Virus record (IMG/VR): IMGVR_UViG_2703718791_000013
Origin: a virus
Taxonomy: Duplodnaviria > Heunggongvirae > Uroviricota > Caudoviricetes
Reading direction: 5' to 3' (one strand)
Length of the DNA: 33,668 nucleotides
This document shows positions 2,273 to 31,853 of this stretch, piece by piece. The number at the start of each line of letters is the position of its first letter. Position 1 is the first letter of the stretch. A program made the position numbers and the translations under genes. The notes beneath the pieces are model-generated. The model was not told the origin of the DNA. It worked only from the letters and a program-made list of their open reading frames with translations, and did no database searches.

Positions 2273-3702
2273 TCCTCCTCATACGAAATATTAAAGGTGG
2301 AGTTTTCTGTATCCAGATAAACGAAATCGTAAAAGCCGTTGGACTCATTCCACTCGACAAATTCCAGATAAAAGTCGCGGAAATAACCCAGCGTTTCGAT
2401 AAATGCCCAAACGTCTTTTTTCTTGATTAGGATGTACTTGCCGACACGGTTCGGATCAAAGAAAGTTGAGTCACGCCCAAATTTTGTTTCCAGTGCCGAC
2501 TTCAGCTCATCAGTCACGTTCTCAATGGTCAGGCTTGCCGATATCCGCCCAGTGATGGTGATCTTAAAGGGGAGTTTTCTGACCTCTTTATACGAGAATT
2601 TCTTGTTCAACTCATTCGGCACCTTCTTAAAGGCAGCCAGGATCATTTCTTCAAGCTCTGACTGGCTTTTGTTTGGATGCCATCCTGAAATAAATATCTT
2701 ATTGATATTCCGAACATTATAAGCACCATCTAATTTCTCTTGCTGGCCTTCGCCCCATGCCTTTACCCAGGACAGTCCCGGGATGTTACGCACCAGAAAA
2801 TACGTATAGTCCCCGCCCCATACGACCTGATCATCATAGGCAAGGTAATATTGTGCACGATTACGTGTGATCTCCGTTGTTTCGGCATCGGTACCTGCGG
2901 TTATGGGTGTCGTTGTCTTAACTGAAATCAAATTAGCTAAATTAGCCGCAGAATCGACAGGAGTCAGGTTTTGGCCAGCAACCAGGGTTATATCTCCGTT
3001 GGTGCACCATACCTTAAGTGTAATGGTCGAGCCTTCTGGCGGTATTTGCCCAATTAGCCCATCACCGAATCGAACCCCCAACTGCTCGGATGGCTTATAA
3101 AACTCAACGTAGACCTGGCTTTTACTACCGGCTAACCGGAACATAGTGCTGGAAGACCACTGCGTGGTCTTACCATCGGTCGTCACGAATACTTCCAGCT
3201 TACAGCAGACAGCAGTGAGAGCCTTTGATAACACGACTTCCAGAAATTCTTTGGCTGCCGTAACGGTATATGTCACCTCCTGGATTTCCAACTGTGCCAC
3301 TTCTACCGTACCGGTGCCGTCAACCAACCTGCATACATCCATAGTCATGTAAGGGTACTGGTCGTCAGATATTAAAGGCATGTTTTTGGGGATTACCGCT
3401 GGGGCATCTTCACTTGTGGCGGTGATCTCAATCATCCCCGATGACGGTGTTGGCTTGGTACCAACGTAACTATTCGTTTCTGCCGCTGCCAGGATAGAGG
3501 AACGCCGCGTCGCGGTCGATATAAAGCCTTCAGCCAGCGCCGCATCGGCATACTGAAAGCACCTGTAGACAATCTGGGTAATAAACAATGTCAGCATCGA
3601 GACAAATTGAGAGCCGACAAACTTCGACCAGAATGAATCTTTCTCGACAAGCTCTTCAAACTCTGCACGAATACTGTCTTTAGTCGGTGTTGTTTTACTC
3701 AT
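2269..3702 (-). CDS. Baseplate protein, 477 aa (P1 BplA-like by position)
   Basis: ORF track. Translationally coupled to both neighbours by overlapping stop/start codons. Confidence 0.45.
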   Translation of the reverse strand: MSKTTPTKDSIRAEFEELVEKDSFWSKFVGSQFVSMLTLFITQIVYRCFQYADAALAEGFISTATRRSSILAAAETNSYVGTKPTPSSGMIEITATSEDAPAVIPKNMPLISDDQYPYMTMDVCRLVDGTGTVEVAQLEIQEVTYTVTAAKEFLEVVLSKALTAVCCKLEVFVTTDGKTTQWSSSTMFRLAGSKSQVYVEFYKPSEQLGVRFGDGLIGQIPPEGSTITLKVWCTNGDITLVAGQNLTPVDSAANLANLISVKTTTPITAGTDAETTEITRNRAQYYLAYDDQVVWGGDYTYFLVRNIPGLSWVKAWGEGQQEKLDGAYNVRNINKIFISGWHPNKSQSELEEMILAAFKKVPNELNKKFSYKEVRKLPFKITITGRISASLTIENVTDELKSALETKFGRDSTFFDPNRVGKYILIKKKDVWAFIETLGYFRDFYLEFVEWNESNGFYDFVYLDTENSTFNISYEEE

Positions 3703-11176: not shown

Positions 11177-11193
11177 AATGCTCTAATAAATTT
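11177..11193 (+). promoter_or_regulatory. C1 repressor operator (AATGCTCTAATAAATTT) upstream of the immI operon
   Basis: One mismatch to the P1 C1 operator 17-mer ATTGCTCTAATAAATTT as I recall it. Same 17-mer family recurs at 12847, 27496 and 31018. Confidence 0.6.
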
Positions 11194-11389
11194 GTATTTT
11201 TAAGTCACGAATGCTATCTTTTCGCATCATATTGACCTTTTAATCGTTCAGGCTTATAGTTCCGCCGTCGTAGCAAATTCTGCGACCGGGTTTAGCAGCC
11301 TGAATGATTGTGCGGACAGCCGCAGATATCCGATATTGCGGTATTTTTGTGTCCGTAAAACCGCGTTACGCCCAAATTATGGTGGGGCG

Positions 11390-11480
11390 TGATGGGGAGG
11401 CTTCGGCCTGCTGGTTTCACAATCGCCAGTCTGCTAACCCCGTCACGTCCTGCCACCTGTTTAGCAGCGGGTAGCAGGTT
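11390..11480 (+). ncRNA. c4: Probable c4-like antisense RNA region (exact ends not determined)
   Basis: Inferred from P1 immI organisation (operator, c4, icd, ant). Region between the operator and icd contains complementary segments (ctgctaacc / ttagcag / gggtagcag). Boundaries are a guess. Confidence 0.3.
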
Positions 11481-12932: not shown

Positions 12933-13733
12933 ATGCAACAAACATTCAATGCGGATATGAATATATCAAACCTTCATCAAAATGTCGATCCTTCAACCAC
13001 TCTGCCTGTTATTTGTGGTGTTGAAATTACGACCGACCGCGCTGGCCGTTACAACCTTAATGCTCTACACAGAGCGAGCGGACTCGGTGCCCATAAAGCG
13101 CCAGCTCAATGGCTAAGAACGCTGTCAGCCAAACAGCTCATCGAAGAGCTTGAAAAAGAAACTATGCAGAATTGCATAGTTTCGTTCGAAGGCCGTGGCG
13201 GCGGCACTTTTGCCCATGAATTGCTCGCTGTGGAGTACGCAGGCTGGATTTCTCCCGCGTTTCGGCTGAAGGTAAACCAGACATTTATCGACTATCGAGC
13301 CGGAAGATTACAACCTGCTATTCCGCAGAGTCTCCCTGAAGCTCTCCGTTTGGCTGCCGACCTGGCAGAGCAAAAGCAACGGCTGGAGCAAAAAATGCTT
13401 ATGGATGCACCTAAAGTCGAATTCGCCGAACGCGTTGCTACCGCCAGCGGGGTTCTAATCGGCAACTATGCCAAAGTGCTCGGTCTGGGCCAAAACTATC
13501 TCTTCACCTGGTTGCGTGATAACGGAATTCTGATCGCAACCGGTGAACGCAGGAACGTCCCCAAACAAGAATACATATCCCGTGGGTATTTCACCCTTAA
13601 AGAAACCGTGATCGATACAAGCAATGGAAGCAGGATTTCTTTCACGACTCGTATAACCGGCAAAGGTCAGCAGTGGCTGATGAAGCGATTGCTTGATGCT
13701 GGTGTGCTGGTACCTGTCGCGGCAACGCGCTAA
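12933..13733 (+). CDS. kilA: KilA, 266 aa (KilA-N domain plus KilAC/Ant C-terminal domain)
   Basis: ORF track. Shares the C-terminal domain with Ant1. Sits between the operator and repL as in P1. Confidence 0.7.
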   Translation: MQQTFNADMNISNLHQNVDPSTTLPVICGVEITTDRAGRYNLNALHRASGLGAHKAPAQWLRTLSAKQLIEELEKETMQNCIVSFEGRGGGTFAHELLAVEYAGWISPAFRLKVNQTFIDYRAGRLQPAIPQSLPEALRLAADLAEQKQRLEQKMLMDAPKVEFAERVATASGVLIGNYAKVLGLGQNYLFTWLRDNGILIATGERRNVPKQEYISRGYFTLKETVIDTSNGSRISFTTRITGKGQQWLMKRLLDAGVLVPVAATR

Positions 13734-13762: not shown

Positions 13763-14608
13763 ATGCTGGCTAAAGTCACTTTCCTGAGCTGTATAACGAT
13801 GAGCGATTTTACTTTTTCTGGCTATGAATTGGCCTGCTTTGTAACACACTCCGGTCTATCCCGTAGCGCCGGGCATATCCTGTCGCAATGTGCAAATCTC
13901 GCGGCAACAACCAGTGAATACTTCATTCACAAGCCTCACCGCCTGATCGCGGCAGAAACTGGTTATAGCCAATCAACCGTCGTTCGTGCATTCCGTGAAG
14001 CTGTAAACAAAGGAATTCTATCTGTAGAGATTGTTATCGGCGATCACCGTGAACGTCGCGCTAACCTGTACCGGTTTACACCATCCTTTTTGGCCTTCGC
14101 ACAACAAGCCAAAAATGCGCTGATTGAAAGCAAATTAAAGATCTCTTCAGCGGCAACCAAGGTTAAAGCTGTTCTCGCTAAGACATTGGCTTTATTTAAT
14201 TTTTTATCCACACCCCCATGTCAAAATGATACCCCCTCCCCCTGTCAGGATGACGTGGCAATAAAGAATAAGAAGTCACAAATTAAAAAAACAAAAAGAT
14301 CAGTTTCCGGCGGTGCCGAAACGACCAGCCTCAAAAAACTGACTTCATGGATCGCCGAGGCAAAAGCAAAGGCTGACAATCTGCGGTTATCCAAAAAACG
14401 CGCTCAAAAACATGAGTTCAAGCAGAAAGTAGAGGCGGCAGCGCGGAAATATGCTTACCTGAAGAACAAGCGTTCTCCTGATATTGGCGGGGTATCAAAC
14501 TTCGATAATTTGCCGCATTGCATGACGGTAAACGAAGCTCTTAATGCGGTTTTAGCCAAAAATAAAGATAACGAACAATGGGGTATACCGGCAGGATTTA
14601 GAGGGTGA
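13763..14608 (+). CDS. repL: RepL, lytic replication initiator, 281 aa
   Basis: ORF track. Size and position after kilA under the C1-controlled promoter. Confidence 0.7.
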   Translation: MLAKVTFLSCITMSDFTFSGYELACFVTHSGLSRSAGHILSQCANLAATTSEYFIHKPHRLIAAETGYSQSTVVRAFREAVNKGILSVEIVIGDHRERRANLYRFTPSFLAFAQQAKNALIESKLKISSAATKVKAVLAKTLALFNFLSTPPCQNDTPSPCQDDVAIKNKKSQIKKTKRSVSGGAETTSLKKLTSWIAEAKAKADNLRLSKKRAQKHEFKQKVEAAARKYAYLKNKRSPDIGGVSNFDNLPHCMTVNEALNAVLAKNKDNEQWGIPAGFRG

Positions 14609-14904
14609 TAGATTGCTCTAATCTGGAGTCACCTGGCGTTTTCAGTTTGAGGTCGGAGATGCAATCTGATTTTTTACAGTTAGCGATCGCTTTTGCAGGA
14701 TATGTTTGTATTGGCTTCTGTGTATACATGATCAGCCGAAAAATGCTTGTCGATATCGACCGCAAAGAACAAGCAGAGGAGATCTTAGTATGGATTTTCT
14801 TTGGCGCGGTCTGGCCATTAGGGATCATGTTTGCTGCAACATTTCTTCTGATGTGGATATTCACCCTTCCAGGTGATTTCTATAGAAAAAAAGCCAGACA
14901 TTGA
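14605..14904 (+). CDS. Small membrane protein, two predicted TM helices, up to 99 aa
   Basis: ORF track. Hydrophobic stretches LAIAFAGYVCIGFCVYMI and ILVWIFFGAVWPLGIMFAATFLLMWIF. Overlaps the repL stop. Confidence 0.4.
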   Translation: MIDCSNLESPGVFSLRSEMQSDFLQLAIAFAGYVCIGFCVYMISRKMLVDIDRKEQAEEILVWIFFGAVWPLGIMFAATFLLMWIFTLPGDFYRKKARH

Positions 14905-14989
14905 TACAATCGTTGCGGGTGCTTGAGGCTATCTGCTTCAGGCATTACCCGAAAAGCAGATAGAAGAAAGCCCCAGATAACATTACGCG

Positions 14990-15060
14990 TCCTGCAAGAC
15001 GCTTAACATTAATCTGAGGCAATATCTATGCTTAGCATACGTAGATTAGCCTCTTACCGA
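14990..15060 (-). ncRNA. sok: Putative Sok-like antisense RNA (position inferred, not read directly)
   Basis: Inferred only from hok/sok architecture, in which the antisense RNA overlaps the mok translation start (mok ATG at 15028). Confidence 0.25.
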
Positions 15061-15234
15061 CCAAAAGGTCAAGGAGAAGCAGGCTATGAAGCAGCAAAAA
15101 GCGATATTAATCGCTCTGATCGTCATCTGTTTAACCGTCATTGTGACGGCACTGGTAACGAGGAAAGACCTCTGCGAGGTACGAATCCGAACCGGCCAGA
15201 CGGAGGTCACTGTCTTCACAGCCTACGAATCTGA
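15028..15234 (+). CDS. mok: Mok-like reading frame overlapping hok, 68 aa
   Basis: ORF track. Overlaps the hok frame out of phase, as in hok/mok/sok loci. Confidence 0.5.
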   Translation: MLSIRRLASYRPKGQGEAGYEAAKSDINRSDRHLFNRHCDGTGNEERPLRGTNPNRPDGGHCLHSLRI

Positions 15235-15241
15235 AAGGTAA
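15086..15241 (+). CDS. hok: Hok/Gef-family type I toxin, 51 aa
   Basis: Hand-translated MKQQKAILIALIVICLTVIVTALVTRKDLCEVRIRTGQTEVTVFTAYESER, which has the Hok signature (TM helix, TRK-LCE-R core, AYES C-terminus). Below the ORF-track size cut-off. Confidence 0.8.
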   Translation: MKQQKAILIALIVICLTVIVTALVTRKDLCEVRIRTGQTEVTVFTAYESER

Positions 15242-15311
15242 GAGACCTGGCGGGGAGAGATCCTCGCCACTCTTCGTGTGTCAGGTATCCTCAATGCACC
15301 CTTTCCTCTCC

Positions 15312-15340
15312 AAATAAAAAAGCTCCCGAAGGAGCTTTAA
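15312..15340. terminator. Bidirectional intrinsic terminator (aaagctcc-cgaa-ggagcttt)
   Basis: Hairpin flanked by an A-run and a T-run. Ends the hok transcript on + and the minus-strand late operon (stop at 15358) on -. Confidence 0.5.
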
Positions 15341-15357
15341 AATACAAGGGATGACTC

Positions 15358-15867
15358 TTAATCCCACTCAATCCAGTTGTAGACGATACGAAGTGACGGG
15401 CGCACAGCGGCAGTCACATCTTCGGTACTAAAGTCGATTGCATCACTGTAGATTTTGCAGTCCAACATTTCAATTGTTGTAGCAGCTTTTGTCACAGCGT
15501 TAACCCCGGAAGATTTGGATTCAGGGGTAGCAGCCATCGTGATATCAACATAGTCCTTCGCCGCAATGCGATCTTTAATGAACTGAAGAATATCGCCTTC
15601 GATAGTCTCCACGCACTGGACCTGGATTTCCCCTGAGTTTCGAATTGGACCGTGCTGGTTGAACTTCACACCATTCGGACCATAGTCCTCCACATCCTCG
15701 CGGGTCATTTCAGGAATTTGCGACGTGCGAACCAGTACGCTGATATCTTCATGGCCTGCAAAAGTGAGCTGGAATTCAGAAGATACCAGTCGTTCGCCTT
15801 TGGCCGCGTTGGCAGTATAGCGGCCCTTAATAAATTTACGGTTTCCCTTAGTGTTATTGTGCCCCAT
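15358..15867 (-). CDS. Virion morphogenesis protein, 169 aa
   Basis: ORF track. Last gene of the minus-strand late operon. Confidence 0.45.
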   Translation of the reverse strand: MGHNNTKGNRKFIKGRYTANAAKGERLVSSEFQLTFAGHEDISVLVRTSQIPEMTREDVEDYGPNGVKFNQHGPIRNSGEIQVQCVETIEGDILQFIKDRIAAKDYVDITMAATPESKSSGVNAVTKAATTIEMLDCKIYSDAIDFSTEDVTAAVRPSLRIVYNWIEWD

Positions 15868-27495: not shown

Positions 27496-27512
27496 ATTGC
27501 TCTAATAAATAT
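27496..27512 (+). promoter_or_regulatory. C1 operator (ATTGCTCTAATAAATAT) in the divergent region between the PAAR operon and uhr-hrdC-dmt
   Basis: One mismatch to the operator 17-mer; overlaps a TTGCTC -35-like hexamer. Confidence 0.55.
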
Positions 27513-31699: not shown

Positions 31700-31775
31700 G
31701 ATGGTGTAGCTCAGCGGTTAGAGCGGTTGACTGTTAATCAACGGGTCGATGGTTCAAATCCATCCACCATCGCCA
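31700..31775 (+). tRNA. tRNA-Asn (anticodon GTT), with encoded CCA
   Basis: Hand-folded cloverleaf: acceptor GATGGTG/CACCATC, D-stem GCTC/GAGC, anticodon stem GTTGA/TCAAC with loop CTGTTAA, T-arm GATGG-TTCAAAT-CCATC, discriminator G, CCA. Confidence 0.85.
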
Positions 31776-31777
31776 AT

Positions 31778-31853
31778 GCCGGTTTAGCTCAGTTGGTAGA
31801 GCGCCTGCCTTGTAAGCAGGATGTCAGCGGTTCGAGTCCGTTAATCGGCACCA
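31778..31853 (+). tRNA. tRNA-Thr (anticodon TGT), with encoded CCA
   Basis: Hand-folded cloverleaf: acceptor GCCGGTT/AATCGGC (one G-U), D-stem GCTC/GAGC, anticodon stem CCTGC/GCAGG with loop CTTGTAA, T-arm AGCGG-TTCGAGT-CCGTT, discriminator A, CCA. Only 2 nt after tRNA-Asn. Confidence 0.85.

Follow-up and report, generated by a model that had tools for sequence, protein, structure and literature searches.

Which element occupies the interval between repL and the oppositely oriented gene bplB in this genome, and what would it do there? The window, i.e., the whole stretch of 33,668 nucleotides that was analyzed, was assigned to a P1-like (Punavirus) phage-plasmid since the flanking ORFs (kilA, repL and bplB as well as pmgG, gene 21 and gene 22, which share the opposite strand with bplB) were 97–99% identical to those of P1-like phages. 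An Rfam scan of the window also detected the C4 antisense RNA of P1 with its a1/b1 targets at 11254–11460 and two tRNAs at 31700–31850. The interval is framed by the following features:

12933–13733, kilA, with KilA-N and ANT domains
13763–14608, repL
14612–14622, core of the C1 operator Op55, ATTGCTCTAAT
14659–14904, plus strand, neighbouring membrane-protein ORF of 81 aa (PGAP WP_001369095.1)
15358–15867, bplB, on the strand opposite to kilA and repL

Homology to P1 and P7 ended at 14622, right after the Op55 core, and restarted at 15316, which delimits a variable segment of 14623–15316. The same interval of P1 carries the remainder of Op55, rlfA, rlfB and pmgF, and it is known as 'highly variable region 5' of P1-like phage-plasmids (PMC9603915). 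A preliminary description of this DNA had proposed a hok/mok/sok-like module inserted after repL. The module indeed lies between repL and bplB, but, instead of an insertion, it should be seen as one of the alternative contents of a region that is known to be hypervariable. When the 3′ flank of repL was compared as that description had suggested, reference P1 and P7 were found to lack the module and to have Op55-rlfA-rlfB-pmgF in its place. Since the module is located in variable region 5, where P1 carries rlfA-rlfB-pmgF, it is regarded here as alternative cargo.

The variable segment consists of two parts. Its left part (14623–14904) is occupied by the 81-aa ORF, which was found only in P1-like phages. 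This neighbour had been described as a membrane protein of 99 aa; a membrane-protein ORF is present, but the 99-aa frame with its GTG start was rejected in favor of the 81-aa ORF with an ATG start, based on the PGAP coding sequence and on the coverage by phrog_3772, which matched residues 19–99 of the longer frame (E 6e-54). The ORF shares the variable segment with the toxin-antitoxin module but lies outside it. The right part (14905–15301) showed 85–90.5% identity to prophage hok cassettes, with that of Rac442 being the nearest outside the P1-like elements (90.5%), followed by hokW of 933W (87%). With a probability of about 0.8, the region of about 14883–15340 is a complete hok/mok/sok type I toxin-antitoxin cassette of the Rac/933W hokW lineage that occupies region 5, acts by an R1-type mechanism and most likely serves as a second addiction module. 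The identity of the cassette rests on membership by sequence and structure and on genomic context, and from these we infer promoter activity, the 3′ end, toxicity and role.

First, the toxin gene was considered. It comprises:

15072–15076, plus strand, Shine-Dalgarno sequence AGGAG of hok
15086–15241, plus strand, hok, 51 aa, Pfam HOK_GEF, protein MKQQKAILIALIVICLTVIVTALVTRKDLCEVRIRTGQTEVTVFTAYESER
15173–15175, plus strand, Cys30 codon of hok
15224–15226, plus strand, Tyr47 codon TAC of hok, inside CUACGAA

The 51-aa ORF that had been proposed as a Hok-family toxin is present, and it matched the Pfam profile PF01848 HOK_GEF over profile positions 2–42 of 42 (E 1.3e-21; 76.3 bits with a cutoff of 22) as well as the 'MokW-like host killing' family phrog_251 (E 1.9e-31). 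PF01848 comprises peptides of about 50 aa with an N-terminal transmembrane helix and a conserved TRK-LCE core, and the score of the hok product exceeded its gathering threshold. The peptide is a member of the family, and neither a frameshift nor a stop interrupts its frame. Its scores were below the cutoffs of the NCBIfam models NF007279 (Hok subfamily; 50.2 bits, cutoff 73) and NF007290 (HokA; 37.5 bits, cutoff 89), which are tuned to other Hok subgroups. No second Hok-like ORF was found within the window.

Since the annotated locus is 100% identical over 14400–15500, the hok product corresponds to RefSeq WP_001352007.1, which PGAP labels 'type I toxin-antitoxin system toxin HokD'. The protein is identical to HokD of K-12 at 47 of 51 positions, to HokW at 46 of 51 and to Hok of R100 at about 18 of 51; the name 'HokD' goes back to the first of these similarities. 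The PGAP name was not derived from NF007279 or NF007290 passing the cutoff. The Tyr47 codon lies in a UACG context, which we take to be the context used by TadA. For hokC, hokD and hokE, A-to-I recoding to cysteine at the equivalent position, Cys46, was described in a Hok survey preprint (10.1101/2025.08.07.668861).

Second, the RNA elements that accompany a self-regulated hok gene were located on the sense strand:

14883–14910, plus strand, predicted hok promoter from a consensus scan, with −35 TAGAAA (14883–14888), a 16-nt spacer and a TG-extended −10 TACAAT (14905–14910)
14917–15340, plus strand, predicted full-length hok mRNA of about 424 nt, with the 5′ end placed according to the promoter and to the first position of the Rfam model and the 3′ end assumed at the shared hairpin
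14917–14928, plus strand, tac element, 12 nt, GGGTGCTTGAGG, 5′-terminal, pairs with fbi
14929–14963, plus strand, 5′ leader hairpin with a 10-bp stem (arms 14929–14938 and 14954–14963), first helix of RF01794
15289–15301, plus strand, fbi element (fold-back inhibition), CCTCAATGCACCC, complementary to tac

Searching the leader against the Rfam models gave a full-length match to RF01794 at 14917–15091 on the plus strand (model positions 1–157 of 157) with 114.3 bits (cutoff 59; E 1.6e-25). RF01794 is named 'sok', but it models the leader of the sense-strand hok mRNA and ends at the hok ATG. As controls, 933W, Rac442 and R100 were matched, and neither K-12 hokD nor reference P1 gave a match. The predicted −35 of hok falls within the 3′-terminal part of the neighbouring ORF (TGA stop at 14902–14904), and the distance from the −10 to the +1 is the same as for TAGAAT in 933W, Rac442 and Apl_pPE4 and for TATGAT in R100. 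The promoter is presumably active, with a +1 at about 14917. A second promoter-like site on the plus strand (15003–15032) was discarded as a chance occurrence since two such sites were counted in the region as compared to 1.2 in shuffled sequence and since the R1 model has no counterpart.

The MFE fold of the 427-nt RNA (14917–15343) reached −165.1 kcal/mol as compared to −113.2 ± 5.8 kcal/mol for shuffled sequences (z −8.94), and it joins the 5′ end to the 3′ end by pairing of tac with fbi (duplex ΔG −20.6 kcal/mol). The tac element was identical in 933W, Rac442, p1919D3-2 and Apl_pPE4 and reads GGCGCTTGAGG in R100. In a consensus fold of six loci (the window, 933W, Rac442, p1919D3-2, Apl_pPE4 and R100), columns 397–416 paired with columns 1–12 in all six, and compensatory changes occurred at 16 pairs. 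Three of these lie in the 5′ hairpin (columns 15/63, 21/57 and 27/51), and the C-G to U-A change at columns 21/57, which is specific to the window, is compensated. The 10-bp stem ctatctgctt/aagcagatag noted upstream of the toxin gene in the preliminary description is a real helix, which appears in the MFE fold as well as in the consensus fold.

The leader also bears on the name given to the gene. In K-12, hokD (relF) of the Qin prophage is the third gene of relBE-hokD and has neither tac nor a match to RF01794, whereas the window has the full leader. Despite the similarity of the proteins, an assignment of the locus as an orthologue of HokD (relF) was rejected because of this difference in architecture. 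Thus, the label 'HokD' masks a full self-regulated hok/mok/sok unit.

Third, the leader was inspected for the overlapping frame and the antisense RNA:

15016–15019, plus strand, Shine-Dalgarno sequence GAGG of mok
15028–15234, plus strand, mok, 68 aa, in the +1 frame relative to hok, which it overlaps (offset 58 nt; phrog_37205, E 1.9e-20)
15043–15072, minus strand, predicted Sok promoter, with −35 TTGACC (15072–15067), an 18-nt spacer and −10 TAATCT (15048–15043)
14962–15036, minus strand, predicted Sok RNA of about 70–75 nt with a +1 at about 15036, consisting of a long hairpin and the tail CUUUCUUCU

The 68-aa Mok-like frame overlapping hok was present as proposed. Its ATG precedes that of hok by 58 nt and lies in the +1 frame, and both offset and frame are the same in Rac442 and in R100, where the ATGs of mok and hok are at locus positions 293 and 351. 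An upstream start and an overlap with hok were, thus, found at the level of the sequence, and translational coupling of the two frames would be expected from this arrangement. In 933W, p1919D3-2 and Apl_pPE4, a one-base deletion shortens the offset to 57 nt and brings mok in frame with hok. The cassette family, therefore, has two mok configurations as read from the sequences, with offsets of 57 and 58 nt; this is a mildly new, descriptive observation.

The predicted Sok segment folded with −31.9 kcal/mol (z −5.35) into a hairpin with a U-rich tail and overlaps both the Shine-Dalgarno sequence (GAGG) and the ATG of mok. The annotated sokW misc_RNA of 933W maps to the window from about 15036 to 14966 on the minus strand. 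The candidate promoter TTGACC-18-TAATCT failed a simple consensus scan and was recognizable by alignment to R100 and 933W only; since the scan was not passed, it was assigned by homology. Its position matches that of the minus-strand promoters of R100 (TTGCGC..TATCCT) and 933W (TTGCCT..TAACCT).

Fourth, the 3′ end of the cassette was analyzed:

15249–15268, plus strand, 3′-UTR hairpin GGCGGGGAG-AGAT-CCTCGCC of the MFE fold, with a loop at 15253–15263 that is uninterrupted here
15319–15338, hairpin AAAGCTCC-CGAA-GGAGCTTT with an 8-bp stem, bplB terminator of the P1 backbone

A terminal hairpin had been attributed to the module and, at the same time, to the convergent late operon. The hairpin is real, but it is the bplB terminator of the P1 backbone and not that of the cassette, and it qualified under the terminator rule on the minus strand only, where it is followed by a T-run. 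It was rejected as the cassette's own terminator because 15316–15420 is shared, with 99–100% identity, with P1, RCS47 and SJ46, which lack hok, and because native cassettes have a different terminator. Rac442 and Apl_pPE4 carry the native terminator CCCGCTTCGGCGGGTTTTTT about 8 nt past fbi, and R100 also has its own terminator. In the window copy, homology to the cassettes stops at about 15301, a Rho-independent terminator of its own is absent directly after fbi, and the bplB hairpin follows 18 nt past fbi. The bplB hairpin probably doubles as the 3′ hairpin of the hok mRNA. Without an own terminator, and with a bplB hairpin that qualifies for the minus strand alone, the hok mRNA has only a tentative 3′ end, and the timing of fbi removal is equally tentative. 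The own terminator is the sole defining feature of the hok/sok family that the window lacks. Its loss and the borrowing of that of bplB are mildly new and descriptive.

The loop of the 3′-UTR hairpin (15253–15263) coincides with the insertion site of IS421/IS186B in many sister plasmids. In p88COLEC-1, an IS421-family insert of 1338 bp lies between 11-bp duplications, GGGAGAGATCC, which correspond to 15253–15263 of the window. IS186B was reported at the hok site with the direct repeat GGATCTCTCC (Venturini et al. 2019, PMC6906374), which is the reverse complement of 15254–15263. The location of an IS186/IS421 target in this loop, between the toxin gene and fbi, is likewise mildly new and descriptive.

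How would the cassette act? The R1 hok/sok paradigm established by Gerdes and co-workers comprises the tac-fbi lock, slow 3′ processing, the block by Sok, the decay of Sok and killing by Hok. Since the RNA and protein elements of R1, the own terminator excepted, are all present or, as for Sok and its promoter, predicted in the window, the canonical mechanism may be expected here as well. Accordingly worded for this locus, a weak promoter would give rise to a stable hok mRNA of about 420 nt, in which pairing of tac (14917–14928) with fbi (15289–15301) would keep the molecule from being translated and from binding Sok. Slow trimming from the 3′ end would strip fbi, and the leader would refold and expose the ribosome-binding site of mok. 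In plasmid-bearing cells, the abundant, short-lived Sok (from about 15036 to 14966, minus strand) would bind the leader and stop translation of mok and, since hok is coupled to mok translation, also that of hok; RNase III would cut the duplex of Sok and hok mRNA. Upon loss of the plasmid prophage or arrest of transcription, Sok would decay first, the stored hok mRNA would be translated, and the 51-aa Hok would enter the inner membrane and cause cell death.

For a plasmid prophage of low copy number (one copy), it is most parsimonious to assume that the cassette would be a second addiction (post-segregational killing) module beside phd/doc. The latter, through which the P1 plasmid prophage is known to exert addiction, is a functional analogue, but it is a type II protein-protein system, unrelated in sequence and located elsewhere in the genome. 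It is kept across P1-like phage-plasmids (PMC9603915). No match to phd/doc was obtained in the window, in what was a weak test. The proposal of a hok/mok/sok-like module is, overall, supported, as all computational checks suggested along with it turned out in its favor, and the earlier functional reading of the locus as extra plasmid-stabilisation or abortive-infection cargo is fair.

R1/R100 hok/sok (parB) shares with the window tac, the leader hairpins, a +1-frame mok that starts 58 nt ahead of hok, fbi and the UACG context at the penultimate Tyr codon, and its antisense Sok promoter between the starts of mok and hok has a predicted counterpart here. R100 differs in its diverged Hok, in the greater length of its first hairpin and in a terminator of its own that immediately follows fbi, and R1/R100 hok/sok is carried on conjugative IncF plasmids. 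'Escherichia phage Rac' 442/2 (MN652886), the most similar cassette outside the P1-like elements, shows an almost identical region of the predicted Sok promoter and target and the same 68-aa mok frame, but it keeps its intrinsic terminator past fbi and its Hok shows 5 differences in 51 residues. The hokW-mokW-sokW locus of the Stx phages 933W and Sp5 (VT2-Sakai) has, in 933W, an identical tac, an fbi with one base different, a coinciding Sok position and a similar RF01794 score (113.5 bits as compared to 114.3 in the window). Unlike in the window, mok of 933W, in frame with hok, encodes a 70-aa 'Gef plus leader', and the phages 933W and Sp5 are integrated lambdoid phages, not plasmid prophages, with a different downstream context. 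For the hokW-sokW pair, the closest characterised relative, a type I toxin-antitoxin function was verified by experiment, with toxicity and rescue being shown (PMC8621323).

The Sp5 precedent also offers a different role for a functional hok/sok module, namely a drop in Sok upon induction, followed by synthesis of Hok and by membrane damage that would speed or improve the release of progeny. In Sp5, hokW-sokW doubled phage release after mitomycin C, with sokW RNA being lost and HokW being produced in a RecA-dependent manner (PMC8621323). In the window, a coupling of the cassette to induction could result from its placement directly behind the kilA-repL operon, which C1 controls; the Op55 core is kept at 14612–14622, and a weak terminator-like site at 14861–14876 is the only one between repL and hok. 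P1, however, already has a full holin/antiholin/endolysin system, and reference P1 and P7 lyse normally although they lack the module. Moreover, the effect in Sp5 was merely two-fold, and read-through from repL has to be presumed. A mainly lytic role is unlikely, though the position behind kilA-repL makes it an attractive and live alternative.

An even less likely extension is that the cassette is wired into the lysis-lysogeny switch of P1. Read-through upon induction, convergent with the Sok promoter, could then silence Sok by transcriptional interference, and Hok could become an induction-timed auxiliary factor for lysis or host shutoff. This proposal builds on the C1-repressed kilA-repL upstream, on the Op55 core at the left edge with no strong terminator in between, and on the replacement of the own terminator by one facing the late operon. 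If it was true, the module would have a dual use, i.e., addiction in lysogeny and an aid to lysis in lytic growth.

Anti-phage defence is the weakest alternative role. It would require that an invading phage shuts off host transcription, that Sok decays and that Hok kills the cell in time to prevent maturation of the invader. Defence genes are often found in the variable regions of phage-plasmids (general literature), and R1 hok/sok was reported to lower the plating of T4 (Pecota and Wood 1996, as summarised in PMC8621323). A re-test in 2026, however, found no protection from T4 by hok/Sok with two strains and two vectors (PMC13047441), and hok was not enriched beside defence systems in the Hok survey (10.1101/2025.08.07.668861). 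In addition, a PADLOC search with Hok, Mok and the neighbouring ORF assigned none of them to a known defence system. Taken together, abortive infection or exclusion as the function of this cassette is very improbable, and addiction remains the preferred reading.

How widely the cassette occurs was assessed next in public genomes. P1-type repL was found in 509 of 5426 complete E. coli genomes, and 198–203 of these 509 (about 40%) carried the uninterrupted arrangement of ORF81, hok, fbi and terminator. The intact copies in P1-like elements are kept at at least 98% identity. The interval from repL to bplB was covered to at least 80% in 328 PLSDB plasmids, a count that, owing to the joining rule, may include copies interrupted by IS421. 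For a rough estimate of the shares of the allele classes, 40 of the 630 PLSDB matches to the cassette were sampled at even spacing; of these, about 37% were intact, 27% were split by the IS and 20% were leader-only remnants. RCS47 and SJ46 are examples of the latter: they lack a Hok ORF and retain the leader and the Sok-coding part as far as about 15048. Such toxin-less, Sok-encoding remnants are a mildly new, descriptive finding.

These variants raise the question of whether the cassette hitch-hikes as a passenger that is selfish or in decay, and erodes without benefit to the phage-plasmid. The loss of the own terminator fits such a view, as do the split by IS421 between hok and fbi in about one quarter of the PLSDB matches and the reduction to leader remnants in about one fifth (estimates from the spread sample), and reference P1 and P7 manage without the cassette. 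On the other hand, all elements are intact in the window, where the mutation in the stem is compensated, and about 40% of the P1-like elements hold an uninterrupted copy with at least 98% identity. In p1919D3-2, furthermore, the interior was swapped for another intact hok allele and not lost. A mere passenger is the most improbable of the readings considered here. Since sister plasmids tolerate IS421 between hok and fbi or toxin-less remnants, selection for killing-competent copies may nevertheless be weak; judging from the frequency of IS-split alleles and of remnants, it is not strong in every lineage.

The cassette is already known: both this type of module and the variability of the site have been described, hundreds of public records contain it, and it has been annotated, though incompletely. 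Venturini et al. 2019 mentioned an 'antibacterial toxin' at the locus in one line (PMC6906374), and the only other mention found was in PMC9603915, where the variable region is defined. Among the literature found on hok in P1-like elements, phage-plasmids or Punavirus, no paper dissected mok, Sok, tac and fbi in a P1-like element, and none reported an addiction role for the hok locus in any of them. RefSeq labels the toxin alone, as 'HokD', and leaves mok, Sok and the regulatory RNA elements unlabelled; GenBank MH422554 names the toxin 'MokW'. The finding is useful for annotation and of little weight for discovery. Reference P1 is unrepresentative at this site, given that, among complete E. 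coli genomes, about 40% of the natural P1-like phage-plasmids have here a second module that is intact and RNA-regulated and would serve addiction. The engineering of P1-like vectors, plasmid curing and models of the persistence of resistance phage-plasmids should count hok/sok beside phd/doc.

The natural variants, i.e., IS421 between hok and fbi, terminator loss and toxin-less Sok remnants, constitute an allelic series for the contribution of the hok RNA elements to killing. The locus of p1919D3-2 has flanks identical to those of the window and an interior of the 933W type, which points to allele replacement by recombination.

Comparison with the P1-like plasmid p1919D3-2 indicates, at the sequence level, that the hok/mok/sok cassette can be replaced through recombination between hok cassettes. 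The flanks of p1919D3-2 match those of the window, with the neighbouring 81-aa ORF (ORF81), the 3' element fbi and the bplB terminator being identical, but its cassette interior is a 933W/HokD-type allele with 89.7% identity (locus L012 163-551 versus window 14917-15303). Within the hok cassette family, two mok configurations were observed. In the window, Rac442 and R100, mok lies 58 nt upstream of hok in the +1 frame, whereas in 933W, p1919D3-2 and vB_Apl-pPE4 it shares the reading frame of hok, at an upstream offset of 57 nt. The last of these is an Actinobacillus phage (PP818812); its hok cassette (locus L013 163-552) shares 88.6% identity with that of E. coli and encodes a Hok protein identical to HokD of K-12. 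Its recorded host is Actinobacillus pleuropneumoniae, which points either to an odd host assignment or to recent transfer or contamination.

The Hok ORF was absent from RCS47 and SJ46, although both kept the hok leader together with the segment that encodes Sok:

L004 ~2714-3016 (RCS47), equivalent to window 14789-15048: remnant with hok leader and Sok-encoding segment
L005 ~2154-2406 (SJ46), equivalent to window 14789-15048: remnant with hok leader and Sok-encoding segment

The right breakpoint of the remnant is identical in both, and the RCS47 remnant still scored 68.5 bits with the Rfam hok-leader model RF01794. These remnants could represent orphan Sok genes able to neutralise related hok modules, or they could simply be decay products.

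In many sister P1-like plasmids, a 1338-bp IS421/IS186-type element was found at the equivalent of window 15253-15263 (L008 9349-10708), inside the loop of a hairpin (15249-15268) in the hok 3' UTR, with the 11-bp duplication GGGAGAGATCC on both sides. This insertion parts hok from fbi and the terminator, and roughly a quarter of the PLSDB matches to the cassette, in a spread sample, were in the split state. Since the element cuts fbi off from hok, the split alleles should lose the inert mRNA pool required for post-segregational killing. Downstream, in the shared hairpin region (15319-15345), a T-run is present only on the bplB (minus) strand, while the hok strand has AAAAUAC after the hairpin. 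Therefore, hok transcripts may read through antisense into bplB, or the hairpin may serve them only to block exonucleases.

The Tyr47 codon of hok (15224-15226) lies within CUACGAA (15223-15229), and the UACG context is common to every hok allele compared. A-to-I recoding to cysteine has been described for the corresponding Cys46 of hokC, hokD and hokE (Hok survey preprint, 10.1101/2025.08.07.668861). Recoding of Tyr47 to cysteine, if it occurs here, would permit a Cys30-Cys47 disulfide.

In P1-like elements, the hok cassette was always preceded by the same ORF:

14659-14904, + strand: 81-aa hydrophobic protein (phrog_3772)

SJ46 encodes a homologue with 44% identity. A promoter scan found no promoter of its own for this ORF, which is therefore probably co-transcribed with repL. 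Of the C1 operator Op55, the 11-bp core (ATTGCTCTAAT, 14612-14622) is kept directly after the repL stop, exactly on the left recombination boundary. This retained operator may still put transcription into ORF81 and hok under C1 control. Further C1-operator cores in the window were exact at 27496 and 31018 and had one mismatch at 11177 and 12847.

RepL (window 13763-14608) had no match in Pfam or NCBIfam. In hundreds of plasmids, RefSeq/PGAP names P1 RepL either 'MarR family transcriptional regulator' or 'helix-turn-helix domain-containing protein'. Rfam placed the P1 immI elements (a1/b1 targets and C4 antisense RNA) at 11254-11460 and two adjacent tRNA genes at 31700-31850, consistent with a P1-like backbone.
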